Shown: positions 1,017-36,058, counted from the stretch's first letter. The stretch: DNA of 38,825 nt from Candidatus Portnoybacteria bacterium CG08_land_8_20_14_0_20_40_83 (GCA_002774415.1 PEYL01000079.1:1-38825); one strand, 5' to 3'. Translations and numbers: made by a program. The notes: generated from the letters alone by a model not told the origin.

Positions 1017-2285
1017 TTATTCTTTTATTCTTTTTATGTCAGCTCCCAATCCTTTTAATCTTTCTGCCAGATTTTCATATCCCCTCTCAATCTGATAAAT
1101 ATTGTCAATTTCGGTCTGGCCTTGCGCAATTAAGGCGGCCATAACCAATGCCATACCGGCCCTCAAATCTGGACTGACCAGTTTGCGGCTGTGCATTTTT
1201 GTCGGCCCGTTGACTACGACACGGTGAGGATCGGCCATGATGATATTGGCGCCCATTTGGGTCAAGCTGTCGCAAAAAAGCAGCCGCCGGTCATAAATAG
1301 TTTCGTGAATTAGACTAGAACCATGAGCTTGCGTCATTAAAACAGTAAAAGCCGACTGCAGATCCGTGGCAAATCCAGGATATTCATGGGTCGTGATATC
1401 ATAAGACAATATTTTTTTTGACGGCAAGATGCTAATCGAGTTTTTGGACAATCTATAATTAACGCCAATTTTGTCAAATGCCGCCCAAAGTACTTCAAGA
1501 TGCAATGGTTCGCAATTTTCGATCAAGACCTCTCCGTTATTTGACGCGGCCGCCAGCATCGCGAAAGTCCCGGCTTCAATTCTGTCGGGAATAATTTTAT
1601 ATTCCCCTCCCTTTAACTCTTTGACGCCTTTGATTTTAATAATCGGCGTGCCCGCGCCCTGGATTTGTGCCCCTATGCTGTTTAAAAAATCGGCCAGGGC
1701 CGGGATTTCGGGTTCCATCGCGCAATTTTTCAAAACAGTGACGCCGTCAACAAAACAGGCGGTCGTCATCAAACTTTCTGTTCCGGTCACCGTAATCTTC
1801 GGAAAGAAAATATCTGCGCCTTTCAGTTTCTTTGCCGTCAACCGATAATTATTTTCTAAAATTTCAACGCGCGCCCCCATTTTTGAAAAACCATCAAGAA
1901 ACATATCAATCGGCCTGGTTCCCGCGCCGATAACGCAACCGCCCGGATGAGGAAAATAGACTTCCTGACAGGAAGCCAGAAGCGGCCCGACAAACAAGAT
2001 TGAGGCCCGAAACTTATTGACCAGATCGGCTGGCAGATTAATACAGGTCCTGTTTTTGAATTGTATTTCAACGGTTCCGTGCTTTATTTTTTTTACGCGA
2101 TGACCCAGAGCAATAAGCATTTCCTCCGCCCGCCGACAATCTTCAATTTCGGGCAGATTGGTAACTAAAATTGGCTCTTTGGTTAAAAGTGCCAAGGGGA
2201 AAATTTTGAGCGCCGCATTTTTTGCTCCTTTCACTTGAATTTTTCCTTCAAGATCCTTACCGCCGTTGATAATTAATTTTTCCAC
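1017..2285 (-). CDS. murA: UDP-N-acetylglucosamine 1-carboxyvinyltransferase
   Basis: 422-aa ORF with a MurA-wide pattern: GAKNAALKI near the N-terminus, the catalytic-Cys loop HPGGCVIGAGTRPID, DRIEAGTF, and DLRAGMALVMAALIAQG. Its stop lies 6 nt from the mreB start. Confidence 0.93.
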   Translation of the reverse strand: MEKLIINGGKDLEGKIQVKGAKNAALKIFPLALLTKEPILVTNLPEIEDCRRAEEMLIALGHRVKKIKHGTVEIQFKNRTCINLPADLVNKFRASILFVGPLLASCQEVYFPHPGGCVIGAGTRPIDMFLDGFSKMGARVEILENNYRLTAKKLKGADIFFPKITVTGTESLMTTACFVDGVTVLKNCAMEPEIPALADFLNSIGAQIQGAGTPIIKIKGVKELKGGEYKIIPDRIEAGTFAMLAAASNNGEVLIENCEPLHLEVLWAAFDKIGVNYRLSKNSISILPSKKILSYDITTHEYPGFATDLQSAFTVLMTQAHGSSLIHETIYDRRLLFCDSLTQMGANIIMADPHRVVVNGPTKMHSRKLVSPDLRAGMALVMAALIAQGQTEIDNIYQIERGYENLAERLKGLGADIKRIKE

Positions 2286-2412
2286 AGAAATCAGTTATTG
2301 ATTATTCTCTTATATGTTATATTAAATTAAGAACATTGGCAATAAATGCCACTGAATGAAAGAATGTCTACCGTTTCTTATAGAAGAAGATGCCCTTGAA
2401 AAATTATAGAAA

Positions 2413-2540
2413 CCCCCACACCATAACGAAAATTATATTTGAAAAAACTTGCATTTGTGCTATAACTAAATTATCCTATTTGAGTCCAGATAGCCAAATA
2501 AACCCTGCGCCTACGGCGCTATCTTCGTTTGGTGTGGGGG
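2413..2540. repeat. Inverted-repeat pair CCCCCACACCA (2413-2423) / TGGTGTGGGGG (2530-2540) enclosing a 106-nt loop
   Basis: Perfect 11-nt arms read directly. The same arms recur at 24588-24598 / 24637-24647. The loop contains a GCGCC-TAC-GGCGC hairpin and a promoter-like site. Confidence 0.75.
2439..2466 (+). promoter_or_regulatory. Possible sigma-70-type promoter for the PEGA-domain gene
   Basis: TTGAAA (2439-2444), 16-nt spacer, TATAAC (2461-2466), about 100 nt upstream of the ATG at 2566. AT-rich context, so a chance match is possible. Confidence 0.3.
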
Positions 2541-2565
2541 GAAAAAGTGCTATTCTTAAAATCAA

Positions 2566-3663
2566 ATGACGCGCAATACCAGACGAATCATATTTTTTGG
2601 TTTTGTATTGATTTTTTTAATTGTCACCCCGGGCGTTTTGCTCTACGCCACGGGTTATTCTTTTGATTGGGAGAGTAAACAACTAATTAAAACTGGCTCG
2701 TTTTATTTCCAATCGCAGCCGGCCGGCGCGCAAATAAAAATTGACGGCAAACTAATTGATACAACGCCCAGTTATGTCAGCCGCCTGAATCCCGGCCAAT
2801 ATCAAATCCAAATATCTAAAGACGGCTTTTTGACATGGCAAAAAAAATTAAATATTGAAGAACAGATCACAACCGAAGCAAGAAATATTTTCCTTATTCC
2901 GCAAAAACTTAATCTTGAATTAGTTACCGATAATGTCACCTCAACCAAAGATTATTTTTTAACCGAGGATCAAAGAAACGTCCAGATGCAGACGGCCCTA
3001 ATCGCTTCCTCAACTTTGAAAGACGTTCTGGGTTTCACTTTATATCAAAGTGATATTTATTATCTGCAAAAATCCAATCTTATTCTTTTCAAAACCGACC
3101 TTTCGGGCAGGAACAAAGAACAAATTTCTTTACAGCCCCTGCCAGAGCCCGGCAAAACTGACTCCGGACAACAAAAAATTTATCAAATAGTAATTTCACC
3201 TGAACAGACTGCGGTTTTTCAGCCAGGCGGCAAGTTTTATCTTTTAGACAAACAGACTAAAATTTTTAATTTGCTGGTAGACGAAGTTCAGGGAATAGAA
3301 TTTTCTTCGGACAATGAAAAAATTCTTTTTTGGACAAACCATGAAATCTGGGTGATGTGGTTAAAGGAGGTTTGGGCGCAGCCGTATAGAAAAGCCCAAG
3401 ATAAAGAACTAATCACGCGCTTTGCAGATAAAATAACCTCGGCCTTGTGGTTGGTTAAAACCAATGAACATATAATCTTTGCTGTTCAGGGAAACGACAA
3501 CAACAGTACTATAAAACTAACCGAGCTTGATGGCCGCGATATGAGAAATACTTTTGACATTCATTCAGGCAAGATTTCGGAAGTTTATTATAATCAAAAC
3601 GATGATTTGCTCTATATTTTAACTGACGGCAAATTATATTCGCTTGACTTATTAAGGTCCTAA
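2566..3663 (+). CDS. Membrane-anchored PEGA-domain protein (hypothetical)
   Basis: 365 aa. N-terminal TM segment IIFFGFVLIFLIVTPGVLLYA. PEGA-like beta-sandwich signature SQPAGAQIKIDGKLIDTTPSYVSRLNPGQYQIQISKDGFLTWQKKLNI. The C-terminal half looks beta-rich and propeller-like. Confidence 0.6.
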   Translation: MTRNTRRIIFFGFVLIFLIVTPGVLLYATGYSFDWESKQLIKTGSFYFQSQPAGAQIKIDGKLIDTTPSYVSRLNPGQYQIQISKDGFLTWQKKLNIEEQITTEARNIFLIPQKLNLELVTDNVTSTKDYFLTEDQRNVQMQTALIASSTLKDVLGFTLYQSDIYYLQKSNLILFKTDLSGRNKEQISLQPLPEPGKTDSGQQKIYQIVISPEQTAVFQPGGKFYLLDKQTKIFNLLVDEVQGIEFSSDNEKILFWTNHEIWVMWLKEVWAQPYRKAQDKELITRFADKITSALWLVKTNEHIIFAVQGNDNNSTIKLTELDGRDMRNTFDIHSGKISEVYYNQNDDLLYILTDGKLYSLDLLRS

Positions 3664-3730
3664 CTATAGGATGTAGTATTGCTCTTTCACATCAGAGGGT
3701 AACAACAAATATTGAAAGGAGGACGAAGTG

Positions 3731-4630
3731 ATGAACATAAAGTTGCTTACGCGAGAAAACATTCCTTGCTGGTATGAATTGTCGTGGCGGCAAAAAAAGC
3801 CAGCCATTATCCTAAAAATCCATAAAGATTTTATTGCCAGTATTAAACCCATTCGAATTCGAGAAGATGCGCCTATTGTTAAAACGCTCAAGGAACAGTT
3901 TAAATTTGAAAGTTTCGCGGGCAATTTTAATGGAAACTATGGGTTTGATAATGCTTTTGTTCGGGTAGGAAAAAGAGGAAATTTTGTTGAGTTTGTCGTC
4001 AAAATTCCAAAGGTTAAAAAATGGACGGGTGAAATTTGTGGCGATTGCAATGGTTCTGGCAAACAAAAATTTTTAGATTTGAGGAGAGATTGTTTCCATT
4101 GCGAAGGAACAGGCAAAGAATGCATCTTTGATTGGCAACCTGCCTATGCAATTTCGGCCAGTTTCACTATCTTTACCACATTAGCGCGATTCCCAGGAAT
4201 AGAAACGTCAGAGCCATTCCCCCAACTTATAACAGTTAATACCATAACTGGAAGTGATATGCATGGCGGATCGCTGGGCGGAGAATACAGTATTCCCTTC
4301 GTTAAATGGTTGACTTCTTTATTCGGGACAAACTCTGTTCCTGAAATGGTCCAGGCAATGAAAATCGCCTACAATCGTATGCTCGGCTTGCACAAATTTG
4401 ACCAGTTCCATTTTCGTGCTTCAGTTGACTACGAAAGTGGCTGGCTGAATGTTAGCTGCCCCGGAAATGCCTGCGGCCTAAATCCTGTCCATGGTGCGGG
4501 ATATGATATGAAAAGAGGACTGGGATATGAATTTGACTGTCATAATGTGGATACGCCAATACAACAAATCACTCTTTTGGCCGGCCTATCGGCACTGCAT
4601 GACAGAGCGCGGAAAGAAATAAAAATTTGA
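3731..4630 (+). CDS. Hypothetical protein with two DnaJ-type CxxCxGxG zinc-finger motifs
   Basis: AGGAGG at 3718-3723 sits 7 nt before the ATG at 3731 (the track starts at GTG 3728). The motif is CGDCNGSGKQKFLDLRRDCFHCEGTGKEC. I recognise nothing else in the protein. The gene is convergent with rpsI. Confidence 0.6.
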   Translation: MNIKLLTRENIPCWYELSWRQKKPAIILKIHKDFIASIKPIRIREDAPIVKTLKEQFKFESFAGNFNGNYGFDNAFVRVGKRGNFVEFVVKIPKVKKWTGEICGDCNGSGKQKFLDLRRDCFHCEGTGKECIFDWQPAYAISASFTIFTTLARFPGIETSEPFPQLITVNTITGSDMHGGSLGGEYSIPFVKWLTSLFGTNSVPEMVQAMKIAYNRMLGLHKFDQFHFRASVDYESGWLNVSCPGNACGLNPVHGAGYDMKRGLGYEFDCHNVDTPIQQITLLAGLSALHDRARKEIKI

Positions 4631-4641
4631 ACAATCAAACA

Positions 4642-4671
4642 AAAAAGCACTCAATTCCTTGGGTGCTTTTT
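4642..4671. terminator. Bidirectional intrinsic terminator between convergent genes
   Basis: AAAAAGCACTC-aattcctt-GGGTGCTTTTT: an 11-bp stem (one G-U pair) with an A-run on one side and a T-run on the other. It lies between the 4630 stop (+) and the rpsI stop at 4687 (-). Confidence 0.7.
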
Positions 4672-4686
4672 CTTATTTGTAATAAT

Positions 4687-5220
4687 TTACCTCTTCGCCC
4701 ACTGCGGTGCTCGCCTGGCTGCCTTCAGCCCATATTTCTTCCTTTCTTTCATTCTCGGGTCGCGCTTTAAATAGCCGGCCCGTTTTAATTTTTTGCGGAA
4801 ATCAATGTTAAATTTAACCAAGGTTCGGGCTATCCCATGCCTGATTGCTTCTGCCTGCGCGTGAATGCCGCCGCCTTTCACTTTCGCAATTATTTCAAAA
4901 CGGTTTAAGGATTTGAGTTTTCTCAAAGAAGCCTCAACGGTCTGCTGCAATTCCATCAAAGGGAAATAATCTTTGTAGTCTTTCTCATTGACGCTAATTT
5001 TGCCTTCGTCTTCGGCCATGGGCCTAATTGTAAAAAGCCTGACTCTTGCAATTGCAGTTTTTCGCCGGCCGACTGCTTCATAATATTTTTTTGGCTTTTC
5101 TGATTTATCTTCTTTGTCAATCGCATCAATTTTTTCTGGCTCAGCAACTTCAATTTTTTCTTTTTTTTCTTTGGCAGCCGGAGCTTTTTTAGTTTTCACT
5201 GTTTTTTTTCTTGGAGCCAT
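4687..5220 (-). CDS. rpsI: 30S ribosomal protein S9 with a ~45-aa Lys/Glu-rich N-terminal extension
   Basis: YYEAVGRRKTAIARVRL...GGGIHAQAEAIRHGIARTL...DPRMKERKKYGLKAARRAPQWAKR. The canonical S9 C-terminus is present. Confidence 0.93.
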   Translation of the reverse strand: MAPRKKTVKTKKAPAAKEKKEKIEVAEPEKIDAIDKEDKSEKPKKYYEAVGRRKTAIARVRLFTIRPMAEDEGKISVNEKDYKDYFPLMELQQTVEASLRKLKSLNRFEIIAKVKGGGIHAQAEAIRHGIARTLVKFNIDFRKKLKRAGYLKRDPRMKERKKYGLKAARRAPQWAKR

Positions 5221-5225
5221 ATGAT

Positions 5226-5594
5226 TTATCTTTTAATTTCGCCCTGATAAATTTTTAAACGCTTAATTATTTTTGCCCGAGTCCGATTTTTTGGCAGCAT
5301 TCCTAAAACTGCTTGGCGCAGAACATTTTTTGGATCTTTCTTAAATGCTTCCTCAAGTGTTCTTTTTCTCAGCCCGCCCGGATAGCCGGAATGCTTATAA
5401 TAGATTTTTTGCTCCAGCTTTTTTCCGGTAAATTTCAAATTTTGAATATTAAAAACCTGGACTTCATCGCCTGCGTCAATATACCGCAAAAAAGCCGGCT
5501 TGCCTTTTCCCCGCAGTAGCACAGCAACTTGCGCTGCCAAGCGACCCAGCTTTTGTTCGGTTGCATCAATTTTATGCATTTTGATTTCGGCCAT
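5226..5594 (-). CDS. rplM: 50S ribosomal protein L13
   Basis: IDATEQKLGRLAAQVAVLLRGKGKP...YYKHSGYPGGLR...AVLGMLPKN...LKIYQG. The rplM-rpsI pair is in conserved order. Confidence 0.93.
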   Translation of the reverse strand: MAEIKMHKIDATEQKLGRLAAQVAVLLRGKGKPAFLRYIDAGDEVQVFNIQNLKFTGKKLEQKIYYKHSGYPGGLRKRTLEEAFKKDPKNVLRQAVLGMLPKNRTRAKIIKRLKIYQGEIKR

Positions 5595-5635
5595 AATTTT
5601 TAAATTTGCCTTGTTATAGAAAATGGGTTAAAAAT

Positions 5636-5983
5636 TTATATAAATTCAATAAAAACCACCGGTGCTCCGTCGCTCGATCGCTGACCGAGCTTCACAATTC
5701 TGGTATAACCGCCGGCCCGTTCTTTATATTTTGGCGCAATTTCTTTAACTAATTTATTTAAAGCTGTTTTTGGCAAAAATCTCTGGGCAAACCTTATGTT
5801 TGCCAAATCTCCTTTTTTCGTTTTTGTTATCAATCGCTCGGCAAGACCGCGGATTTCTTTTGCGCGCGCCTCGGTCGTTTTTATTTTTCCCTGCATAATT
5901 AAATTAATAACTAGGCTTTTTAAAAACGCCCGACGCTGGTCCCTCTTCTGTCCAAATTTTCTTCCTCTATTTTTATGACGCAC
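5636..5983 (-). CDS. rplQ: 50S ribosomal protein L17
   Basis: MRHKNRGRKFGQKRDQRRAFLKSLVINLIMQGKIKTTEARAKEIR...GGYTRIVKLGQRSSDGAPVVFIEF. It follows rpoA as in the alpha operon. Confidence 0.93.
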   Translation of the reverse strand: MRHKNRGRKFGQKRDQRRAFLKSLVINLIMQGKIKTTEARAKEIRGLAERLITKTKKGDLANIRFAQRFLPKTALNKLVKEIAPKYKERAGGYTRIVKLGQRSSDGAPVVFIEFI

Positions 5984-6004
5984 TTCTTTGTTTCCTTTCT
6001 CCTT

Positions 6005-6937
6005 TTATTCTTTTATCTCAAACCCGTATTTTTTGAAAATTTTCTTTATTTCTTTTATCCCTTTATCGCCCATTCCTTCGATTTCCTTGAGCGAGCTTTC
6101 ACTTTTTTTGCTCAAACCCCCCAAGGTCTTAATCCCTCCCTCAATCAATGCATTTATTGTCCTTGTGGAAAGCTTTAAGTCTTCAATTTTTATCTTCAAA
6201 ACGTCTTCCGACGCTTCTTCTTCGCGAATTTTTTGGCTTTGCTCTTCTGCTTTCTTTATTTCTAAAAATAATTTAAATTGATTGACCAAAATCTCGGCTG
6301 CCTGCGCAAAAGCTTCTTCGGGAGCGATGCTGCCGTCTGTTTCTATATCAATTTTAAGACGGTTAAAATCAGTTCTTTCTCCCACTCGCATATTTTCTAC
6401 TTCAAAATTTGCTTTAAGCACCGGAGTAAAAATTGCATCAATGGCAATCATCCCAATTTCCAATTTTTCTTTTTTTCTCCTCTCAACGGGAACAAATCCG
6501 AGGCCTTTTTCAACTTTTATTTCCATTTCTAGTTCCGATTTTTTATCAGTCAAAGTGGCAATAACGGCATCTTTATTTATTACTTCTACATCCGAACTCA
6601 CTTTAATATCACATGCTTTTACTTCTTTTTGTCCCTTTGCCGAAATAAAAACCATTACCGGCTGATCGGTGTATAATTTAAATCTGACTTTTTTTAAATT
6701 CAGTATTATCTCAATTGCGTCTTCTACAATTCCCGGTATTGTTGAAAATTCATGCTGCACTCCCTTTATTTTAAAACCGGTGGCCGAAGCCCCAGGCAAA
6801 GAAGAAAGAAGCACGCGGCGAAGGGCATTCCCTAAGGTTATGCCGTAGCCGGGATAGCAACCTTCAATTTCAAAAACTGCCCGATTGTCTTCTTTTTCAA
6901 TAACTTTTGGCGTTATGGGAAGTGGTATATTTTGCAT
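6005..6937 (-). CDS. rpoA: DNA-directed RNA polymerase subunit alpha
   Basis: 310 aa. NTD signature GYGITLGNALRRVLLSSLPGA. The C-terminal helix-hairpin-helix CTD reads IEDLKLSTRTINALIEGGIKTLGGL. Confidence 0.93.
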   Translation of the reverse strand: MQNIPLPITPKVIEKEDNRAVFEIEGCYPGYGITLGNALRRVLLSSLPGASATGFKIKGVQHEFSTIPGIVEDAIEIILNLKKVRFKLYTDQPVMVFISAKGQKEVKACDIKVSSDVEVINKDAVIATLTDKKSELEMEIKVEKGLGFVPVERRKKEKLEIGMIAIDAIFTPVLKANFEVENMRVGERTDFNRLKIDIETDGSIAPEEAFAQAAEILVNQFKLFLEIKKAEEQSQKIREEEASEDVLKIKIEDLKLSTRTINALIEGGIKTLGGLSKKSESSLKEIEGMGDKGIKEIKKIFKKYGFEIKE

Positions 6938-6950
6938 AGTTTTTTAAAAA

Positions 6951-7104
6951 GCGAGGGTATTGCCTCAAAAAACATCGCGCAACCGCGCCATTAAATTTTT
7001 CAACGGAATAGCTAATGCGCGGTGAGCGGCTCGGCAGCGGCTGGATTAAAACTTGTTTTTACATTTGACAGCCGACTGCGGTTTTTTGAGGCAATGCCCG
7101 AGCG
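6951..7104 (-). repeat. Structured intercistronic element, family A, copy 1 (rpsD stop to rpoA start)
   Basis: Outer stem 6955-6973 GGGTATTGCCTCAAAAAAC pairs with 7080-7099 GGTTTTTTGAGGCAATGCCC. Inner helix is 6982-6988 ACCGCGC / 7017-7023 GCGCGGT. The conserved blocks AACATCGCGCA and GCCGACTGCG are shared with the copies at 8531 and 13156. Confidence 0.85.
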
Positions 7105-7108
7105 TAGT

Positions 7109-7735
7109 TTATCTTGAATAAAATTCAACTACCAAACCCGCTGGATTTAAATCGCCTAAATCAGCGGCGCTAGGAATATTTAAAATTTTCCCTTCAATTT
7201 TTTCTTTTTCAAGCATAAGCCATTGCGGGGTTTCATATTTTTTTAAAATAGTAGGTAGATCTTTCATTAAATTCGATTCTTTTATTTTTGGACTCAATGA
7301 AATAATCTGATCTTTCTTTATTTGATAAGAAGGAATATTTATTCTTTTGCCGTTAACCAAAATGTGGCCGTGGTTGACAAGCTGGCGCGCCATTGTTCTT
7401 GATTTTGCCAATCCCAAGCGAAAAATAACATTGTCCAGGCGCGTTTCCAGTTTTTTTAATAAAATTTCTCTGGTATCACCCTGCGCTGCCATTGCCTGTT
7501 GTACATATTTTTTAAATTGTCTTTCTCGAATCCCGTAGATTCTTTTAATTTTCTGTTTTTCTGCTAATTGTTTACCATATTCAGATGTTCCGCCTCTCCT
7601 TTTCCTTGCTTTACCATGGATTCCAGGTGGGTCGGGCCGCTTAACCATGGCACATTTGGGACTAAAACAACGCTCTCCTTTCAAAAAAAGTTTCTCCCCA
7701 GCTCGGCGGCATTTTTTGCATTTTGGATCTGCCAT
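7109..7735 (-). CDS. rpsD: 30S ribosomal protein S4
   Basis: 208 aa. N-terminal zinc-knuckle CKKCRRAGEKLFLKGERCFSPKC. S4 domain LETRLDNVIFRLGLAKSRTMARQLVNHGHILVNGKRINIPSY. Confidence 0.93.
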   Translation of the reverse strand: MADPKCKKCRRAGEKLFLKGERCFSPKCAMVKRPDPPGIHGKARKRRGGTSEYGKQLAEKQKIKRIYGIRERQFKKYVQQAMAAQGDTREILLKKLETRLDNVIFRLGLAKSRTMARQLVNHGHILVNGKRINIPSYQIKKDQIISLSPKIKESNLMKDLPTILKKYETPQWLMLEKEKIEGKILNIPSAADLGDLNPAGLVVEFYSR

Positions 7736-7791
7736 ATTCGCTTTCGCTCAAATTAAAAATGTAAAATTAAAAAATCAAAATGACAAATCAA

Positions 7792-7891
7792 TCCTTCGAC
7801 TCTCTGGTCTTTAGGCCAGAGTATGCTCAAGATTGATACTGAGCGACGCCCATTCGACGTTGCTCAGGGCGTCCTGAGTGGAATCGAAGGA
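7792..7891. repeat. Multi-hairpin GC-rich repeat (TTCGAC...GCTCAGG type) in the rpsK-rpsD spacer
   Basis: Outer stem TCCTTCGA (7792-7799) / TCGAAGGA (7884-7891). Inner hairpins are CTCTGG/CCAGAG (7802-7807/7816-7821) and CTCAGG/CCTGAG (7863-7868/7873-7878). The core TTCGACGTTGCTCAGGGC resembles motifs at 24470-24488, 14790-14813 and 15468-15486. Confidence 0.7.
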
Positions 7892-7986
7892 CGCCTTTAT
7901 TCTCGCCCTTAAACGCGAGGTTTGGACATCATCAAATGTATCAAATTTTAAAATTAGCTAATGCTAAAATCAATTCTGAATTTCCT

Positions 7987-8030
7987 TCATTTTGCATTTT
8001 ATCCCGCTTAGCGGGATCATTTTGCATTTT
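7987..8030. repeat. 16-nt palindrome ATCCCGCTTAGCGGGA flanked by the 14-nt direct repeat TCATTTTGCATTTT
   Basis: Direct repeats lie at 7987-8000 and 8017-8030, with the palindrome at 8001-8016. The adjacent 18-mer TTTGCATTTTGATATTTG (8021-8038) recurs inside murB at 37063-37080. Confidence 0.8.
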
Positions 8031-8052
8031 GATATTTGATATTTGAATTATT

Positions 8053-8514
8053 TTACACCCTCCTTACTTTTCTCGGCCGACAGCCGTTGTGCGGTATCGG
8101 CGTTATATCTTTAATCGCTGAAATTTCAAGACCATGACTGCCCAACGCCCGGATTGCCGCTTCTCTGCCGCTGCCAATTCCCTTAACAAAAACTACAACC
8201 TCTCTGACACCCAATTTTTTAACTTTCTCCAAGACCGCCTCAACCACCTTTGAAGCAGCAAAGGGGGTTGCTTTCTTTGGACCCTTAAAGCCCAGTCCTC
8301 CCGAGCTTGCCCATGCCAAGACATCACCGTCCATAGTTGTCAGTGTCAGAATGGTATTATTATAGCTTGATTGAATAAAAGCCCTCGCTTTTTCAACCCT
8401 TCTTGATCTAATTTTGTCTGATCCTAAAACGGCTTTCTTTTGAGCAGCAGATAATTCCTGCTCTTCACGAAGCACATCTTGTTCAGATTGAGCAATAATT
8501 TTCTTTTTTCCCAT
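8053..8514 (-). CDS. rpsK: 30S ribosomal protein S11
   Basis: I prefer the ATG at 8514 (MGKKKIIAQ...). The track start at 8565 would translate the family A repeat. Core sequence: SSYNNTILTLTTMDGDVLAWASSGGLGFKGPKKATPFAA...VFVKGIGSGREAAIRAL...ITPIPHNGCRPRKVRR. Confidence 0.9.
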   Translation of the reverse strand: MGKKKIIAQSEQDVLREEQELSAAQKKAVLGSDKIRSRRVEKARAFIQSSYNNTILTLTTMDGDVLAWASSGGLGFKGPKKATPFAASKVVEAVLEKVKKLGVREVVVFVKGIGSGREAAIRALGSHGLEISAIKDITPIPHNGCRPRKVRRV

Positions 8515-10015: not shown

Positions 10016-11815
10016 TTATTTAACGGAGTCAATAATGATATTAATTTTGTCAATCTGCTTGGGTATGCTTTTTGCCCAAAAGGGCCAAAGCGAAAATTGG
10101 GCTTCTTTTATTTCCTGACGACCAGATAATATTTGGCGTACCTCGCTTTGTTGCTTTCCGGCAATTAATTTTTTTATTTCTTCCTGATTCACCTTCCAAA
10201 TGATTTCTTGAGAACCGGCGACGCCGAAACTCATCTGGCCTTTGTCAATGTCGATTTTCATGTCTTTATAATTAAATGATATCTGATTAACCATTTCTTT
10301 GTTGCCGTCAAGATTATCAGATAAACTCCCCTGCAATAAACTATAAACATCTGCCTCTTTGAATACCAAGACCGTTGCCAAGCTTGTTATAGAAAGCATA
10401 AATTTTTCTGCTTTGCCCCCGACATCAACCGATGGTTTTATTTCGGTAATCTTTGTTTCAGTTGCGCCCTCCAAAACTTTCAGGTCACTGGAAATTTGCG
10501 CAGCTAAATCTGTCTGAATTTTTTGATTTAAGCTTTCCGAAATTTTGCTCTTGGCATTGTCAAAATCGTCTTGCGTTACAACTTTTACATTTTCGGTAGA
10601 ACCACCGCTCATTGACCCCTTCGATTTACCGTAAAATCCCGCATATTTTGGCGAGTCCTGAAAACCGGGGATTGAAAAATTGCTCGGCCCGATGTTATAG
10701 GCGGCACCCGGCTGATCTGCTTCAACATCAACATCCAGAAAGCTGGCCAAAATTTTGCCCTCTTCAATCTTTGCACCCGGAATCCTAATTGTTTTTGTCA
10801 ATCGGAATATTTTACCATCCTGTGAAAGAAACCGCGTTGTTTCTACCAATGCTTGGGGACTGGAACTGTAGGCATTATAAACTGTTATTGTCCCTTTGGC
10901 TTTTTCGTTTAATTGACGCCGGCCGGTAGCTAAAAATTCCTGGCTGTCTCTTTCCTCTAGTTTTACAAGCTGGGCGGGTATTTTATTTGAAGCTACATCA
11001 ATTTGCGATAAATTTTTATCGGCCAGTACTTTAAAATCAAACGGTATCTGCTCCCTTTTTGCAGTAATTGAAACGTCGGCTTTTGGCAAAACCAGATAAA
11101 AGATGACCCCGGCGATAATAATTGCAGAAATAATAAATATGCCAAAAATCTTTTTTGGAAATGAAGAAACAGTGCTGATTGCCTCGCGTGATTTTTCTTG
11201 ATTTTCAGCAGGATAAACAAGCGGTTTTTTTGCAATATCTTCTTGCTTATAAGACTTAATTTCAAAATTTTCTTTTATAGGAATACTCTCTTCTTTTTCA
11301 AAAATTTGTTGCTTGCCTAAAATTTTTGATTCTGTTTCCTCCCTATGCTCAAGCAATAAATCGGCTGATTTTTCAGAAATATCTTCAATTTTTTTTGTGG
11401 TCAATTTGCCAGGCGGAGGGGCTCCCGATTTAATGATATCGCTCATCCGCAAAGACGAAGATTTTTTTTCTTCCTTAAGAAATTTTTTAAATTCATCAGG
11501 CGTCACCTGTTCCTGCAAAATAGCGTCTTCCGGGCGCTCGAGATGCTCATCTAACTGTTCGGGTAGCGATTCACTCACTGAAAAACCCGTCTTTTTTGCC
11601 AGACGCTGCACAGCCGAGTCTTGAGAAACAATAGTAACTTTTTTTCTTAAATTATCTGCTTCCCTTTTTAGCAACTTAAGATTAACTAAACTCTGACTGA
11701 TTACTGCTCCCTCCGGTATCACCAAAAAAAGCTCCTCTTCTTTGGTCCTGATGAGTTTATCAATCACCGAAGTTATTTCTTCATTTGCGTTTATATAAAT
11801 ATTTTTTTCATTCAT
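10016..11815 (-). CDS. Hypothetical single-pass membrane protein (599 aa)
   Basis: Long ORF with a cytoplasmic N-terminal domain, an acidic linker, TM segment IFGIFIISAIIIAGVIFYLVL, and a large beta-rich C-terminal ectodomain. I cannot assign a family from sequence alone. Confidence 0.55.
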   Translation of the reverse strand: MNEKNIYINANEEITSVIDKLIRTKEEELFLVIPEGAVISQSLVNLKLLKREADNLRKKVTIVSQDSAVQRLAKKTGFSVSESLPEQLDEHLERPEDAILQEQVTPDEFKKFLKEEKKSSSLRMSDIIKSGAPPPGKLTTKKIEDISEKSADLLLEHREETESKILGKQQIFEKEESIPIKENFEIKSYKQEDIAKKPLVYPAENQEKSREAISTVSSFPKKIFGIFIISAIIIAGVIFYLVLPKADVSITAKREQIPFDFKVLADKNLSQIDVASNKIPAQLVKLEERDSQEFLATGRRQLNEKAKGTITVYNAYSSSPQALVETTRFLSQDGKIFRLTKTIRIPGAKIEEGKILASFLDVDVEADQPGAAYNIGPSNFSIPGFQDSPKYAGFYGKSKGSMSGGSTENVKVVTQDDFDNAKSKISESLNQKIQTDLAAQISSDLKVLEGATETKITEIKPSVDVGGKAEKFMLSITSLATVLVFKEADVYSLLQGSLSDNLDGNKEMVNQISFNYKDMKIDIDKGQMSFGVAGSQEIIWKVNQEEIKKLIAGKQQSEVRQILSGRQEIKEAQFSLWPFWAKSIPKQIDKINIIIDSVK

Positions 11816-17220: not shown

Positions 17221-17245
17221 AAAATCCGCCCCAAAGGCGGATTTT
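17221..17245. terminator. Bidirectional intrinsic terminator (efp / ATPase gene convergent)
   Basis: AAAATCCGCC-ccaaa-GGCGGATTTT: a 10-bp stem flanked by A and T runs. Confidence 0.75.
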
Positions 17246-17279: not shown

Positions 17280-19100
17280 TTATAATTCTATCTTCTCTCC
17301 CTCATTTAAAACTTCCCTATTTGAATTGTCAGATTTGTTTTCGCTACGCTTACTATTCTGGCCTGGGACCGAATTGCTTTTTTTCTCTTCCGCATCGTTT
17401 TCTTCCTCGTTTTTTAAAACTTCATGCAGGGTCTCGCGCAGCTCCGACAAATTAACTTCTTTTTTCTTTCTTCGCGAATCTGAAAATTTGGCCGGCTCTT
17501 TCCCAGCGGCTTGGGCCAAAGAAATAGGTTCGCCAGTATCTTTAATTAAAATCTCGCTTGAAGGTTTTGAGTTTTCCGGTCTGAAGTTTGGCGTAAAGGT
17601 TCGTGAAGTGGACGCAGAAAAAGTTCTTCCTTGCTCCCGCATTTTTGGCAAACAATCTTTGCAATAGACGGGCCTGACCCCATCGGGCTTAAATTTTACC
17701 TGAATTTTTTTGCCGCAATTGGCGCAAATTGCATCAAACATTGGCTGCTGCTGTTCATGAAATTCTGTTTCATGCGCTCTTGAAAATTCTTTCCCCAAAG
17801 TTTTTCTTTCCTCTTCTTCGTTTTTAATTACTCCGCTCCATTTGGCAATTTTTTCCTCAACTTCGCTGCGGCTCGTGCTGTAGCGCTCTCGGGAAACCTT
17901 AATGATTGTTTCTTTATACGAAACTTCGGGTTTGGGAAACGGAGCGAGAGTTGTGGCGGAAAAAGGCCGCGAAGCCATGCCATCAATCATCAGTTTCAAA
18001 TAAATCTGCGCAAAGCCAAGCCCCACCAGGTCGTTGACCGTAAACTCCGGCTCAAATTCTTTTTCAATAAATTCAGCGTCATACCCGCCGACTCTGAAAA
18101 TAATCATCGTGCCCACGTTCCCAAAAACCGCGTCTCGCACCGGTTCAACCATCTGGGTGATATACTGATGCGCCAAAATTAAATCCAGGTGGTATTTTCT
18201 GGCTTCAGACAAAATTGCAGCAAACGATTCGGTAGCAAAATTTTGAAACTCGTCAACATATAAATAAAAATCTTTGCGTTCTTCTTCTGGCACATCAATC
18301 CGCGACATGGCGGCCAGCTGAAGCCGCGTGATAAGCATGGCGCCCAGTAAAGCGGAATTGTCCTCGCCAATCCTGCCTTTGGATAAATTCATGACAAATA
18401 TCTTCTCCTCGTCCATAATCTCACGGATATCAATGGCTGATTTTGTCTGACCGACAATATTGCGAATCAAAGGACTTGTCAAAAACTGCCCGACTTTGTT
18501 TTGAATCGGTGCCACTGCCTCGGCCATAAATCTGTCGGGATATTTGGTGAATTCATCAACCCAAAAACTTTTAACAACCGGGTCGGTAATTTTTTCCACC
18601 ACTTTTTTACGGTATTCCTTATCAATCAAAATGCGCATAATGCCAAGAAGGGTTGAGCCGGGATATTCCAAAAGAGCCAAGATTGCATTTCGTAAAAGAT
18701 ATTCAAGCCTCGGACCCCATGACTCTGCCCATAGTTTTTTAAAAACACCTACGAGCCCCGAAGCAATAAGATGCCTATGTTCAGGATCAACTTTTTCAAT
18801 GGCATTGAAAGCAATCGGAAAATCCAAATCGGCCGGATTGAAATAAATCACATCATTGATCCGGTTCGAAGGCACATAATCAAGAATTTTTTCGGAAAAT
18901 TCGCCGTGCGGATCAACGATACCAACGCCCCTGCCTGCCTGAATATCTTGAATCGCCATATTTTCTTCAAGGGTTGTTTTCCCGGTGCCGGTTTTCCCGA
19001 TAATATAAAAATGTCTCCGGCGGTCGTCGGCTTTTATCCCAAATTTAACTCTCTGATTACGAAAGTTAGTCTCGGCAAATAATGTTAGTTCTTCATTCAT
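17280..19100 (-). CDS. VirD4/TraD/TrwB-like (type IV coupling-protein-like) P-loop ATPase with a C-terminal zinc ribbon and a charged tail
   Basis: 606 aa. Walker A is YIIGKTGTGKTT and Walker B is FYLYVDEFQNF, followed by ARKYHLDLILAHQY. This is the pattern of TraD/VirD4/HerA-like hexameric translocases. The soluble N-terminus has no TM segment. The C-terminal ribbon is CANCGKKIQVKFKPDGVRPVYCKDC, followed by a ~130-aa low-complexity tail. Confidence 0.7.
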   Translation of the reverse strand: MNEELTLFAETNFRNQRVKFGIKADDRRRHFYIIGKTGTGKTTLEENMAIQDIQAGRGVGIVDPHGEFSEKILDYVPSNRINDVIYFNPADLDFPIAFNAIEKVDPEHRHLIASGLVGVFKKLWAESWGPRLEYLLRNAILALLEYPGSTLLGIMRILIDKEYRKKVVEKITDPVVKSFWVDEFTKYPDRFMAEAVAPIQNKVGQFLTSPLIRNIVGQTKSAIDIREIMDEEKIFVMNLSKGRIGEDNSALLGAMLITRLQLAAMSRIDVPEEERKDFYLYVDEFQNFATESFAAILSEARKYHLDLILAHQYITQMVEPVRDAVFGNVGTMIIFRVGGYDAEFIEKEFEPEFTVNDLVGLGFAQIYLKLMIDGMASRPFSATTLAPFPKPEVSYKETIIKVSRERYSTSRSEVEEKIAKWSGVIKNEEEERKTLGKEFSRAHETEFHEQQQPMFDAICANCGKKIQVKFKPDGVRPVYCKDCLPKMREQGRTFSASTSRTFTPNFRPENSKPSSEILIKDTGEPISLAQAAGKEPAKFSDSRRKKKEVNLSELRETLHEVLKNEEENDAEEKKSNSVPGQNSKRSENKSDNSNREVLNEGEKIEL

Positions 19101-19118
19101 TTATTTTTTCCTTCTTTA

Positions 19119-19262
19119 GCGTAAAGCAAGCGGCTTCTGGAACCATCGAGCGACGAGCGGGCATGGTATCCCGACGAAGCGTCGGGACGAGCGAGGAGCT
19201 CGCTGGAGCAGAAAATTCCCGCTGGGAATTTTCTGAGTTTCCAGAAGCCGCTTGCTTTACGC
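19119..19262. repeat. 144-nt multi-hairpin element closed by a perfect 24-bp inverted repeat
   Basis: GCGTAAAGCAAGCGGCTTCTGGAA (19119-19142) is the exact reverse complement of 19239-19262. The interior has hairpins CCCGACG-aag-CGTCGGG, GAGCGAG-gagc-TCGCT and GAAAATTCCC-gct-GGGAATTTTC. It lies between the membrane-protein stop (19271) and the ATPase start (19100). Confidence 0.85.
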
Positions 19263-19270
19263 CGCTTCCC

Positions 19271-20452
19271 CTACCCTGTCGGCAGCCCAAGCGGCGGCTC
19301 GGCTTTCTTTGTTTCAAGCCAAGGAGTCATAGGCGCTTTAACCGAAGTTGTCGGGAAATGGAAAAGACTGGCTAATTCTTCAATATTAAATATATAGCCT
19401 TTCTCCCAAAAACTTCTTGTTTTCAGAAGACGGAGCAGTCTGCGCTGCTTGAAAATTTTTCTTTGTTTTGCAAAAAGATAATTGGCTTTTGTCGTGGTGA
19501 CTTTATCCGGCCTCAAATTGTTAGCGTTTAAAGACGCGAACTGATTGAATAAGCCCATGATGGCGCCGACATTAGGCATAGCAAAAATTTCCCTCCGTCC
19601 AAAATAGCCAAACTGAATTTTTGCTTCGTATCCTTTTTTTGCCGCTTTTAGTTCGATGGCGTTTATGGTCTCTCTTTGTCCGGGCGATAACATCTGAAAA
19701 GGAACAGCCGCTCCCACTTCCGTGGGGACAGCGGCTGGCCTTATTTTGTCCATTAAGCTCTTAACTTCTTTTTCTGACCTTTTAACCCAATCATCCGCCA
19801 ACGGCCTGATCAGAATCTGAATCCATATCTGTTCCCCTTGTTTCAACTTACTCATCACTTCCATCAGACCGGCTAAGGGATCAATAAAAGGAGGGCTTGT
19901 TGGCCGCATAACGATATCAACGTGCTGCATATAGGTCCGGATCGGATAAACATCGCTTTTTGATAATCTTAAACGCGCTCCCCAAATATCCCAGTTTTTA
20001 TTTGGGATATCTGTCGGAACATTTTGGACATAATCATCGGTTTCTTTAATTTCTGCCTGCGGATACTGGCTATAAATTTGAGCTTCAATTAAATTCCTGA
20101 ATTTTGCCGCCCCTCTAATGAAAAAATGGATTTCGCCATTGATGCCAACGATTTCAAGACTGAAGTAATCCTGTGTTCTACCTTCAAAATACTTCTGATA
20201 TTTGGTTGTCACCGTACCAAAAATCCCCCAAAATCCGGCAAACACTTGCTCCATTATTTTGGGGGTTCGTTCAATATCCCTGGGAGGCCTAATTTCTAAA
20301 ATTCGCCAGTCTATGCCTTGCCAATAAACGCGTTTTATATAATACATCCATGTCTCAAAAAAGGCGACTGCCAAAACTATCGGCAGCCATATCCAACCAA
20401 TGTCAAAGATAAATCTTATTATTGTTTTTAAAACCTCAAAGGTAAAATTCAT
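19271..20452 (-). CDS. Hypothetical membrane protein, partner of the VirD4-like ATPase
   Basis: 393 aa with an N-terminal hydrophobic segment IIRFIFDIGWIWLPIVLAVAFF and a second weaker one, VFAGFWGIFGTV. The rest is a soluble domain I cannot assign to a named family. Confidence 0.55.
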   Translation of the reverse strand: MNFTFEVLKTIIRFIFDIGWIWLPIVLAVAFFETWMYYIKRVYWQGIDWRILEIRPPRDIERTPKIMEQVFAGFWGIFGTVTTKYQKYFEGRTQDYFSLEIVGINGEIHFFIRGAAKFRNLIEAQIYSQYPQAEIKETDDYVQNVPTDIPNKNWDIWGARLRLSKSDVYPIRTYMQHVDIVMRPTSPPFIDPLAGLMEVMSKLKQGEQIWIQILIRPLADDWVKRSEKEVKSLMDKIRPAAVPTEVGAAVPFQMLSPGQRETINAIELKAAKKGYEAKIQFGYFGRREIFAMPNVGAIMGLFNQFASLNANNLRPDKVTTTKANYLFAKQRKIFKQRRLLRLLKTRSFWEKGYIFNIEELASLFHFPTTSVKAPMTPWLETKKAEPPLGLPTG

Positions 20453-20478
20453 TTTCTCTTTTTAAAAAACTTGGCGGC

Positions 20479-21540
20479 TTAGGCGATATTAAAACGCCCG
20501 TCCTCCAGCCTTTTGAAATATTTTTTGTTTTGAAGATTGATTAAGATGGTATTTTCCTTAATCAGCCTCTTGGCTAAAACTTTTTTAACTATATTTTCTT
20601 TAGACAAAGACCCTTCTTTTTTTAAAATGTCATAGATAACATCCAAAACAGTGCCGGGCTCGTAACCCCATTCGGCTAACGCATAAATCCCGCGGCCGAT
20701 TAAAACAAAACGCGGATCTTTTATCAGCTCGTTATGAACCGTCTGAATATAAGCCGGTCGCAGATTAGGAAGCTGGGAATTGATAAGCTCCGTGATTTCA
20801 GAAAAATGAAACGGTCGGCTTTCTTTTTTCAAAATCAAATAAGCCTTATCCCGCACGCCTCTGGGAGAAATTTCCGGCCAGCCGACCGGCCCAAATTCGC
20901 CAAAATTATTTTGCTCAATTAATTTAGAAGCGTCAATATAAGAAAGCACGGCTTTATCAGAGACACCGGACAAGCCTTTTTTAATAATCTCTGAAAGTTC
21001 TTTATCGCCTAAGGGCCGGCGATTTTTATCAAAGTATTTTATTGCCGAGTCAACTGTTTTTTTTGCAATTTTTATGGAATTTTTATTGATAGTCCAGGAT
21101 GGATAAAATTGGTCGGTCTCCGCCAGCCTTTCAAATGGTTGACTCAAAGTCAAAATTAAACTAATAGCGGCGCGGCAAAGCGTAAGTTCTTCTCCTTCTT
21201 TTTCCATCTGGGCCAGTTTTTGGGCAGGCAAGCAAAAACAGACTAAATCATTAAAAGTTTTTTCTTCCCGGCGCATATCGCCGTAGTCTTTAAAATAAGT
21301 ATGGATCTCGTCTTGAAGAGGTTTCAGCCTCAATTGAACTTCGGGCTGCGCTAAATGATCGAGGCCGTTCTTTTCAATCTGGCGGACCCGCTCTCTTGTA
21401 ATATTGTATTGATCACCAATTTCCTGAAGAGTTTGCGGAATCCCGCCGGCTAAGCCAAAACGTCGGCGAATCACATCCTGAGTTCTCCGATTATTTACCT
21501 CCTCCAAAATTTCTGAAACTAAATTATATGGATTTTCCAT
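20479..21540 (-). CDS. Sigma-70 region-4-like HTH protein with a C-terminal HARE-HTH-like winged helix
   Basis: The N-terminus VIRRRFGLAGGIPQTLQEIGDQYNITRERVRQIEKNGLDHL is a region 4.2 signature. The C-terminal part RPFHFSEITELINSQ...TVHNELIKDPRFVLIGRGIYALAEWGY resembles the HARE-HTH of RpoE/delta-type proteins. Confidence 0.6.
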   Translation of the reverse strand: MENPYNLVSEILEEVNNRRTQDVIRRRFGLAGGIPQTLQEIGDQYNITRERVRQIEKNGLDHLAQPEVQLRLKPLQDEIHTYFKDYGDMRREEKTFNDLVCFCLPAQKLAQMEKEGEELTLCRAAISLILTLSQPFERLAETDQFYPSWTINKNSIKIAKKTVDSAIKYFDKNRRPLGDKELSEIIKKGLSGVSDKAVLSYIDASKLIEQNNFGEFGPVGWPEISPRGVRDKAYLILKKESRPFHFSEITELINSQLPNLRPAYIQTVHNELIKDPRFVLIGRGIYALAEWGYEPGTVLDVIYDILKKEGSLSKENIVKKVLAKRLIKENTILINLQNKKYFKRLEDGRFNIA

Positions 21541-21580: not shown

Positions 21581-21650
21581 ACACGGAAACGCCCACACGG
21601 ATATTATTATATCGGGGTCATCCGTGTGTAATCCGGGTATCAGTGTCGCT
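21581..21650 (-). promoter_or_regulatory. Conserved ~70-nt leader motif, copy 1 (upstream of the HTH/membrane/ATPase operon)
   Basis: By hand alignment, 56 of 70 positions are identical to 35602-35670. The hairpin is CACACGGAT (21594-21602) / ATCCGTGTG (21620-21628). It lies downstream of the promoter-like site at 21668-21696. Confidence 0.5.
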
Positions 21651-21667
21651 TTTTTTTAATTACCTAA

Positions 21668-21696
21668 AGAATATCACACTATCCAAATCTTGTCAA
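21668..21696 (-). promoter_or_regulatory. Possible promoter for the HTH/membrane/ATPase operon
   Basis: The minus strand reads TTGACA (21696-21691), a 17-nt spacer, then TATTCT (21673-21668). It sits immediately after the secF stop. Confidence 0.4.
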
Positions 21697-35601: not shown

Positions 35602-35670
35602 ACCCGGACGCGCTCACACGGATAATTTTTTTCCGGGTCATCCGTGTAAAATCTGCGTATCGGTGTCGCT
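35602..35670 (-). promoter_or_regulatory. Conserved ~70-nt leader motif, copy 2 (between the hpf stop and pdaD)
   Basis: It aligns with 21581-21650. The hairpin is ACACGGAT (35616-35623) / ATCCGTGT (35640-35647), and CCCGGA (35603-35608) / TCCGGG (35632-35637) could form an interleaved pairing. Its last bases overlap the hpf stop codon. It is followed toward pdaD by GTTTGCC-ata-GGCAAAC (35583-35599) plus TTT. Confidence 0.5.
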
Positions 35671-36058
35671 ATTTGTTTTTTCTAAATCTCGCCAGCGGCG
35701 ATATACCGTAAAGCTTTTTTATACTTCTGGCTCCCCTCCTGAATAATGTTTCCTTTTTTGTCTTAAATTTTCTTATTTCTTCCTCCAATTCTTCTTTTGC
35801 GTCATCAATTAAAGAAAAAAGGTTCTCGTTTTTAACCTCGCTACGGAAAAATTTTCCCGGAATTTTTAAATTTATATGCGCTTCAAAAATTTCTCCCTGC
35901 TTTTGCCCGCCAACTACTCTTGCAAATTCTACCAAAACTTCAATCAGATCAGGATCAACGTTTTCTAAGAATTTCTCTAATTTTGCAATTCTTTTTTCTG
36001 TATAATCTTTCAGGTCTTCTGAAATTTTCACATCACTACTTCTTATAATAAACTTCAT
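35669..36058 (-). CDS. hpf: Ribosome hibernation promoting factor (RaiA/HPF, S30AE family)
   Basis: 129 aa: MKFIIRSSDVKISEDLKDYTEKRIAKLEKFL...FEAHINLKIPGKFFRSEVKNENLFSLIDDAKEELEEEIRKFK. Confidence 0.85.
   Translation of the reverse strand: MKFIIRSSDVKISEDLKDYTEKRIAKLEKFLENVDPDLIEVLVEFARVVGGQKQGEIFEAHINLKIPGKFFRSEVKNENLFSLIDDAKEELEEEIRKFKTKKETLFRRGARSIKKLYGISPLARFRKNK

Follow-up and report, generated by a model that had tools for sequence, protein, structure and literature searches.

On the minus strand of a 38,825-nucleotide (nt; 38.8-kb) stretch of DNA from Candidatus Portnoybacteria bacterium CG08_land_8_20_14_0_20_40_83 (GCA_002774415.1 PEYL01000079.1:1-38825), the whole of which is called the window below, three genes follow one another. 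The first encodes a DNA-binding protein with helix-turn-helix (HTH) domains, the second a membrane protein of the DUF8128 family and the third an ATPase resembling type IV coupling proteins (T4CPs). This module is real, being neither an artefact, nor a mobile element, nor a defence island. Overall, we consider it probable that its second and third genes make up a domesticated, split motor of the coupling type, for which a function is proposed below in conditional terms. The module is laid out as follows.

20479..21540, minus strand: HTH DNA-binding protein, 353 amino acids (aa), by open reading frame (ORF) and Pfam
19271..20452, minus strand: DUF8128 membrane protein, 393 aa, by ORF and PF26449
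17280..19100, minus strand: ATPase, 606 aa, by ORF and Pfam
17841..19100, minus strand: ATPase core (aa 1-420) without a transmembrane (TM) helix; the P-loop motor contains an all-alpha insert and has its Walker A and Walker B motifs at aa 35-43 and aa 280-288
17280..17840, minus strand: C-terminal appendage of the ATPase (aa 421-606), comprising zinc ribbon and charged tail

An initial annotation of the window had described these ORFs as one co-oriented unit. All three were found again at these positions, together with the gaps of 26 nt between the HTH and DUF8128 genes and of 170 nt between the DUF8128 and ATPase genes.

The sequence of the ATPase contains the Walker A motif IIGKTGTGKTT and the Walker B motif FYLYVDEFQNF. 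Among Pfam families, TrwB_AAD_bind (2e-11, aa 24-337) and TraG-D_C matched the protein, DUF87 (3e-6) was confined to the P-loop stretch (aa 15-91), and neither AAA_10 nor CagE gave a Pfam match. In the structural model, where pLDDT was mostly 70-90 over the core and below 50 over the tail, helices of aa 106-230 are inserted in the core. The best Foldseek matches of this model were DotL (4e-9), HerA (1e-8), TrwB (~1e-7, TMt 0.55-0.59), Cag-beta and the C-terminal domain of VirB4; no FtsK chain was among the matches. With hhalign, TraD of the F plasmid aligned over 271 columns (E 4e-4), and in the comparison with TraC of F (VirB4), the P-loop alone aligned. The NCBIfam models for TraD, VirD4, CedD and VirB4 scored far under their cut-offs (SXT_TraD 41.4 bits against a cut-off of 366, conju_CD1115 24.8 against 250). 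Taken together, the Pfam, Foldseek and TraD comparisons and the low NCBIfam scores lead us to regard the protein, as judged from its sequence and predicted fold, as a coupling-protein-type (TrwB/DotL/TraD-like) motor that fits no curated subfamily. It has no hydrophobic window, and Walker A begins as early as aa 35, so that there is no N-terminal TM domain on the same polypeptide.

Thus, the P-loop motifs, the missing membrane anchor and the coupling-protein affiliation of the initial annotation all stand, and the profile searches that it had called for, together with the structure search, place the motor with coupling proteins rather than with FtsK or Ced. It is true that HerA, FtsK and the archaeal Ced proteins belong to the same ATPase superfamily, that HerA is among the best fold matches and that the CedD model reached 1e-9. 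However, the CedD and DUF87 matches span aa 15-91 only, no FtsK chain was matched, and the window holds no NurA or CedA-type partner.

The appendage of the ATPase carries a treble-clef zinc ribbon (C459xxC462-x17-C480xxC483), matched by zf_Tbcl_2 (1.9e-13, aa 453-488, nt 17637-17744) and by TIGR04272 above its cut-off. It is followed by a charged tail of low model confidence with the short conserved motifs ISLxxA, KKEVNLxxLR and GExIEL. Ribbon and tail had been noted before and are indeed present in the window protein, but they turned out to vary between lineages, the ribbon being found in 32 of 62 complete orthologues. We also considered whether a C-terminal PGExxxF motif of the ATPase was linked to the presence of the HTH gene, as in a TraD-TraM docking model; no correlation was observed, and the idea was rejected.

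The 393-aa protein belongs to DUF8128 (PF26449), an assignment that is precomputed both for the identical protein and for almost every one of the best 120 of its 712 homologues (E <= 1e-3). Its N-terminal anchor, described initially as several TM segments, is a single TM helix (aa ~12-36, nt 20345-20419). The remainder is a large soluble alpha/beta part with a conserved NIEELAxLxHFP motif, ending in a C-terminal PPxGLP peptide. An AlphaFold2 model built on 44 sequences (pLDDT 85.5, pTM 0.81) shows a long N-terminal helix followed by alpha/beta domains. When this model was compared with the PDB by Foldseek, the 13 best matches were without exception full-length chains of TrwK/VirB4 from the type IV secretion system (T4SS) of R388 (PDB 7O42, 7O43 and 8RTD), with E-values from 3e-6 to 8e-4, probabilities of 0.99-1.0 and TMq of 0.36-0.39. 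Structures of the VirB4 C-terminal domain alone, TrwB and HerA were absent from these PDB matches. Since full-length VirB4 was matched and its isolated C-terminal domain was not, we read the match, without alignment coordinates, as one to the VirB4 N-terminal domain. The soluble part is accordingly predicted to be a cytoplasmic domain with a VirB4-N-domain-like fold, which would make the DUF8128 half, as modelled, a docking collar or anchor rather than a channel.

The layout of VirB4 (TrwK), an N-terminal docking domain followed by a related ATPase, would then be that of the DUF8128-ATPase pair as well. Yet there are differences: DUF8128 shows no sequence similarity to VirB4 N-domains, the motor half is closer to T4CPs, and genes for VirB3, VirB6 and VirB8 are not nearby. 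Sequence searches of the PDB with DUF8128 revealed no link to the VirB4 N-domain either, and when the 44 sequences were scanned against Pfam with E as high as 10, only noise was obtained.

The relationship between the DUF8128 protein and the ATPase becomes apparent from relatives in which the two form a single polypeptide. Over the 824 positions of the single PHROG family 5156 (phrog_5156), DUF8128 matches 71-205 (E 8e-17) and the ATPase 395-818 (E 1.9e-58). Both halves are also carried by an 833-aa protein of Bacillus methanolicus plasmid pBM69 (WP_003349917), labelled 'DUF87 domain-containing protein'. Its aa 53-326 are DUF8128-like (hmmsearch 37+14 bits; hhalign probability 97.7%, E 1.8e-12), with ...EELA..H.P still recognisable, and its aa 348-780 represent the ATPase (E 3e-45). 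The genes after it encode a Replic_Relax protein, a TcpC protein and an 860-aa AAA_10 (VirB4-like) ATPase, and the fused gene thus occupies the coupling-protein position of a Gram-positive conjugation cluster. Counting pBM69, the fused gene was found in 18 Bacillaceae plasmids; a 913-aa version lies beside TcpC/D/E-type genes on the 65-kb plasmid of B. subtilis DSM 5611. We dropped the idea that the latter plasmid is pLS20-like: VirD4 of pLS20 is a conventional T4CP with two TM helices, and the 65-kb plasmid has Tcp-type genes.

Further relatives complete this picture. In Priestia, outside the candidate phyla radiation (CPR), a fused ORF comprises a TM helix and a full-length DUF8128 (68.7 bits) running directly into the ATPase. 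This gene is broken into at least three frames (frameshifts or read errors) at 5762-8077 of locus L089, which comes from the Priestia megaterium 'plasmid' pFDU301A (NZ_CP045273), an almost unannotated record of 1.08 Mb. Around the gene lie CheW, GGDEF and sigma-factor genes and one for a group II intron reverse transcriptase. A haloarchaeal plasmid of Halomontanus has the split form: a 378-aa DUF8128-like gene extends into the beginning of a 1027-aa T4CP-like gene, beside a TrbL/VirB6-like gene. In SPO1-like Bacillus phages, the 906-aa gp27.4 contains the ATPase (75 bits, aa 418-763) and a weak match to DUF8128 (15.6 bits, aa 144-292), and the gene directly after it, gp27.3, encodes a Replic_Relax protein (2.9e-12). 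In two elements, pBM69 and SPO1, the fused gene is therefore immediately succeeded by one of the Replic_Relax nicking type. An actin-like partition gene lies five genes upstream of gp27.4, and the region as a whole (1735-7245 of locus L091, from NC_011421) looks like a plasmid-type cassette within a lytic phage, made up of the actin-like (Alp7A-type) gp27.9, four small ORFs, gp27.4 and gp27.3. No viral contigs encoding DUF8128 were found.

The fused plasmid and phage proteins (830-910 aa), with profile homology in both halves, therefore contain the same two modules in the same order as the Patescibacterial genes. They differ in being one polypeptide, in the lack of a TM helix in the plasmid forms examined, in an ATPase that is 24-35% identical to the window protein, and in their context: Tcp-type conjugation genes in pBM69 and the DSM 5611 plasmid, a nearby partition gene in SPO1. 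The junction lies ~20-25 residues past EELA..H.P, at a place equivalent to the low-confidence C-terminal tail of the window DUF8128, and we therefore suppose that fission happened in the linker. Such evidence makes it very probable that the DUF8128 and ATPase genes are two halves of one T4CP-type motor protein. The initial annotation had treated the two proteins as partners; they do belong together, but as more than partners, being halves of a protein that is fused in plasmids and phages of Firmicutes. A further apparent fusion among our loci (L077, 5242-8292, 1016 aa) is an artefact, in which a masked run of N bridges two genes, and represents a trap for automated fusion calls.

Within Patescibacteria, a scan in which each species was represented by a single genome found DUF8128 relatives in no fewer than 592 genomes. 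The lineages concerned are Portnoy-, Morani-, Lipton-, Terry-, Niyogi-, Nealson-, Uhr-, Kerfeld-, Falkow- and Magasanik-bacteria, Spechtbacterales and Paceibacterota, which we take to fall in the classes Paceibacteria and ABY1 (GTDB). The family comprises 3,446 clusters at 50% identity (E <= 1e-3), and the best 150 are all stand-alone proteins of 344-552 aa. Many species-representative metagenome-assembled genomes with the operon bear titles such as 'uncultured Gammaproteobacteria', 'Bdellovibrionales', 'Bathyarchaeia', 'Binatia' and 'Acutalibacteraceae' (among loci L005-L084); these are probably mislabelled or contaminated bins.

The gene neighbourhood was surveyed in 80 related loci. The ATPase was the next gene after DUF8128 in 63 of the 71 loci in which there was room for it (median gap 15 nt), the HTH gene preceded DUF8128 in 66 of 76 (median gap 35 nt), and the complete trio was present in 53 of 66; other genes come after DUF8128 in loci without an adjacent ATPase. 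The trio is therefore syntenic across Patescibacteria, and the initial annotation passes a check that it had itself proposed. The common gene order is secD-secF-HTH-DUF8128-ATPase. In a majority of the 80 loci, secD-secF comes before the trio, which mnmA and alaS often follow. Within ~6 kb, none of the 80 loci had a VirB4-, VirB6- or second T4CP-like gene, in searches of limited sensitivity.

To judge the conservation of the module, we took the median identity of the proteins at these loci to those of the window.

ATPase core: 66.7%
EF-P: 58%
AlaS: 56%
SecD: 52%
SecF: 48%
MnmA: 42%
HTH protein: 37%
DUF8128: 36%
ATPase tail: 33%

No other protein of the neighbourhood is as conserved as the ATPase core, and strong purifying selection acts on the motor. 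These data also define how the Patescibacterial proteins stand to known T4CPs (TrwB of R388, TraD of F, VirD4, DotL and Cag-beta). The likeness consists in the P-loop domain with its all-alpha insert. Unlike T4CPs, the window ATPase lacks an N-terminal two-helix membrane domain of its own, the anchor being a separate protein predicted to have a VirB4-N-domain-like fold. Furthermore, no linked relaxase or T4SS genes were found in the window or in the surveyed flanks, and the Patescibacterial genes are core-chromosomal and evolve very slowly. A 395-aa protein consisting of the ATPase core only is encoded on a Sulfitobacter mediterraneus plasmid (7935-9122 of locus L086, from NZ_CP081110). With 42% identity to the Patescibacterial motor (profile E 5e-115), it is by far the nearest of the plasmid matches; it has no DUF8128 neighbour and is directly followed downstream by a transposase; the gene may be a fragment acquired horizontally from a CPR-type source.

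The secDF synteny raises the question of whether this adjacency is functional, in which case the motor would work with Sec in exporting proteins or handling membrane proteins instead of acting on nucleic acids. Besides the position of secD-secF directly upstream, one might cite secA, which lies a few kb upstream in the window and in one of the surveyed loci (L001), and the fact that some T4CPs recruit protein substrates. Yet the conserved block runs on into mnmA and alaS, which have no Sec link, and inherited gene order therefore explains the adjacency equally well. The plasmid and phage relatives pair with nicking and partition proteins and not with export genes, and the predicted operon partner is a DNA-binding protein. 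We thus hold a role in export to be highly improbable.

A role in anti-phage defence was considered as well. The module does attract defence models, namely PADLOC mad8 (2.3e-14) and HerA (1e-7 to 1e-4), and the HTH protein matches the sigma-4 part of MzaA, from which one could imagine a defence module built on a HerA/mad8-like ATPase. These matches, however, comprise only the shared P-loop core and the sigma-4 domain, and nuclease, methylase or Sir2 partners are missing. The fixed chromosomal position in hundreds of species and a core conserved above EF-P are the opposite of how defence islands behave. On the grounds of synteny and conservation, we rejected this explanation, which appears to us the least credible of those considered.

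Part of this picture has a published counterpart. Quinonero-Coronel et al. (2025, PMC12102498) reported 5,713 VirD4-type T4CP homologues in 2,918 Patescibacteria genomes, i.e., about two per genome by VirD4 profile, seldom near virB4 (148 homologues), and stated that exaptation of these proteins 'cannot be ruled out'. Their orphan 'T4CP homologues' are almost certainly the ATPase family of our module, and the ATPase itself has, in this sense, already been published. What that work (PMC12102498) does not give is the partner protein DUF8128 and the split, the predicted VirB4-like fold, the linkage to the HTH gene, the synteny with secDF and the level of conservation. No mention of DUF8128 or PF26449 was found in the literature searched. 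The same authors described TrsD, a VirB4-N-terminal-like protein encoded mostly beside virB4 (PMC12102498), and because of this location TrsD is probably distinct from DUF8128.

Keeping these reports in mind, it is tempting to suppose that the module supplies the missing coupling protein of the Patescibacterial T4SS, encoded apart from virB4, with DUF8128 docking the motor on VirB3/VirB6 and the motor delivering DNA or protein substrates. The T4CP-type homology of the ATPase and the predicted VirB4-N-domain-like fold of DUF8128 would suit such a role, as would the conjugation clusters in which the haloarchaeal and Bacillus plasmid relatives reside. Moreover, the T4SS cluster of Southlakia epibionticum has no recognisable coupling or relaxase proteins (Wang et al. 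2023, PMC10633639), and T4CP genes are often far from virB4 (PMC12102498). Against it, only 148 of the 5,713 Patescibacterial homologues are near virB4, relaxases are almost absent from the phylum, and the T4CP homologue of S. epibionticum is non-essential while its T4SS is essential (PMC12102498); the empty flanks of all 80 loci, within the sensitivity given above, point the same way. Overall, we regard a coupling function for the T4SS as unlikely.

The remaining member of the trio, the HTH protein, combines sigma-70 region 4 (Sigma70_r4 6e-13, aa 18-63, nt 21352-21489) with a HARE-HTH domain (9.5e-8, aa 231-291, nt 20668-20850), a combination recognised in the initial annotation and seen again by Pfam. 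It has no TM helix. Because it carries region 4 without region 2, it is not a sigma factor. A degenerate Replic_Relax protein in this place would mirror the pairing seen in the plasmid and phage; hhalign gave no match, and this candidate was rejected.

One might instead regard the HTH gene as an independent housekeeping transcription factor, similar to RNA polymerase delta or sigma-4 proteins, that merely shares an operon with a functional unit of two genes. The family is large (> 7,900 homologues) and is named 'RNA polymerase delta subunit' in some sources, HTH homologues are lacking in the plasmid and phage relatives, in 10 of 76 loci DUF8128 and the ATPase are retained but the HTH gene is not, and the tail motifs of the ATPase do not co-vary with the presence of that gene. 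What speaks for a closer tie is that 87% adjacency at a median gap of 35 nt, among proteins only ~37% identical, exceeds the usual chance linkage of gene order. An independent HTH protein is thus a real possibility, although we lean towards a functional association.

Returning to the domesticated split motor, we may outline how it could have arisen and work. An old gene fission in the linker would have divided one motor of the VirD4/TrwB/TraD kind into the DUF8128 and ATPase genes. Patescibacteria then seem to have domesticated the pair on the core chromosome, away from relaxase and T4SS genes and usually in an operon with the HTH gene, as far as genome comparison can tell. By analogy with its relatives, the module is most likely a membrane-docked, ATP-driven DNA-handling motor. 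The ATPase subunits, presumably arranged in a hexameric ring, would be held at the cytoplasmic face of the membrane by DUF8128, much as VirB4 is by its own N-domain, and would spend ATP there on moving or remodelling DNA or nucleoprotein. Substrate recruitment or regulation could involve the zinc ribbon, the charged tail and the HTH protein. With one TM helix per subunit, the complex would not itself be a channel; the motor would have to feed another membrane complex (such as a T4SS or ComEC) or act on the cytoplasmic side.

The notion of a DNA motor is derived from the behaviour of the family and from the Replic_Relax partners of the fused relatives in pBM69 and SPO1; that DNA is the actual substrate is a tentative proposal, of which we are rather less than convinced. 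A more far-reaching scenario would see DUF8128 and the ATPase as a third branch of the VirB4/VirD4 ATPase radiation, in which a docking domain of VirB4 type is joined to a motor of coupling-protein type. In this scenario, a phylum-wide, T4SS-independent and membrane-tethered DNA pump, loaded by the sigma-4/HARE-HTH protein, would perform a core task, e.g., on imported or segregating DNA in nucleotide-scavenging epibionts. We mention it as a speculation with little chance of holding in full.

Several observations weigh against the proposed motor. We infer the binding of the two halves to each other, and of the HTH protein to them, from fusion and synteny, and the pairing has exceptions: 8 of 71 loci lack an adjacent ATPase gene and 10 of 76 an adjacent HTH gene. 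Genes for a relaxase, a channel or DNA uptake were not found in linkage with the module. The link between DUF8128 and the VirB4 N-domain comes from one structure search with modest TM scores (0.36-0.39), and hhalign comparisons of DUF8128 with the N-domains of F TraC and of the VirB4-like (AAA_10) protein of pBM69 gave no signal. The zinc ribbon and tail motifs, as lineage-variable features, do not track the HTH gene. Finally, the non-essentiality observed in S. epibionticum (PMC12102498) is odd beside such extreme conservation, if that gene is the orthologue.

It is also important to consider why such a motor deserves attention. Patescibacteria represent a large share of bacterial diversity and have tiny genomes with few genes kept, and a gene retained throughout is therefore likely to matter. 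The present motor, whose family is known elsewhere from plasmid conjugation, has been retained by hundreds of species at least and surpasses EF-P, AlaS and SecD in conservation. Identifying its cargo would show how a mobile-element motor entered core cell biology, and its role bears on the acquisition and handling of DNA by Patescibacterial epibionts. The combination of a predicted VirB4-like N-domain with a T4CP-like motor bears, in turn, on how VirB4 and VirD4 are related in evolution. For laboratory work, a genetically tractable entry point is offered by the fused relatives in B. subtilis plasmids and SPO1 (gp27.4, gp27.3).

As for the surroundings of the module, the remaining Pfam-matched ORFs of the window are all housekeeping genes: MreB, MurA, ribosomal proteins, RpoA, an FtsA-like protein, AlaS, MnmA, EF-P, SecD, SecF, an RRM protein, SecA, a polyamine operon and MurB. 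A Pfam scan of the ORFs detected no conjugation or secretion parts in the window, and no tRNA genes or Rfam matches were found in it. The flanks are therefore as the initial annotation had them, housekeeping genes without relaxase, VirB4, VirB6, pilin or integrase. Its view that the locus is not a conjugative element holds as well, as no larger integrated element is apparent within the 38.8 kb. A few ORFs of the window are without a Pfam match; one of them, at E <= 1e-5, is a 599-aa ORF (10016-11815, minus strand) upstream of the FtsA-like gene.

The non-coding features of the module are the following.

19101..19270, no strand assigned: 170-nt spacer with a palindromic insert, 24-bp perfect arms at 19119-19142 and 19239-19262
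17221..17245, no strand assigned: 11-bp hairpin AAAATCCGCC-TTTGGG-GCGGATTTT, flanked by an A-run and, on its opposite side, a T-run; efp and the ATPase gene converge on it
21668..21696, minus strand: sigma-70-like promoter candidate, TTGACA-17-TATTCT with extended TG, a consensus match only, in the 161-nt gap after secF
21581..21657, minus strand: 5' leader motif with a hairpin, ACACGGATGA...TATCCGTGT, common to the leader of the polyamine operon at ~35602-35677

The 'structured spacer' described initially is indeed 170 nt long and palindromic, yet it is no conserved part of the unit. The 144-nt palindromic element is placed exactly between the stop codon of DUF8128 and the ribosome-binding site of the ATPase, where the relatives have a median gap of 15 nt, and represents a lineage-specific insert outside the conserved unit. 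It is not followed by a T-run and therefore probably does not act as a terminator. By contrast, the hairpin at 17221-17245, lying where the initial annotation had closed the unit with a bidirectional terminator and flanked as listed, is a candidate bidirectional intrinsic terminator.

The promoter-like site is likewise present as a consensus match; promoter-type matches of this sort numbered 24 in the region, against 12.4 expected from shuffles. A search of RNA sequencing runs for transcripts of the locus found none that contains it. The leader motif, which sits just 3' of this site, is real too and has a second copy in the leader of the polyamine operon. Within the window, 21607-21657 and 35627-35677 are 80% identical over 51 nt, and ~70 nt are alignable. 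To judge from this resemblance, the motif could be a regulatory element shared by the HTH and polyamine operons or another small repeat.

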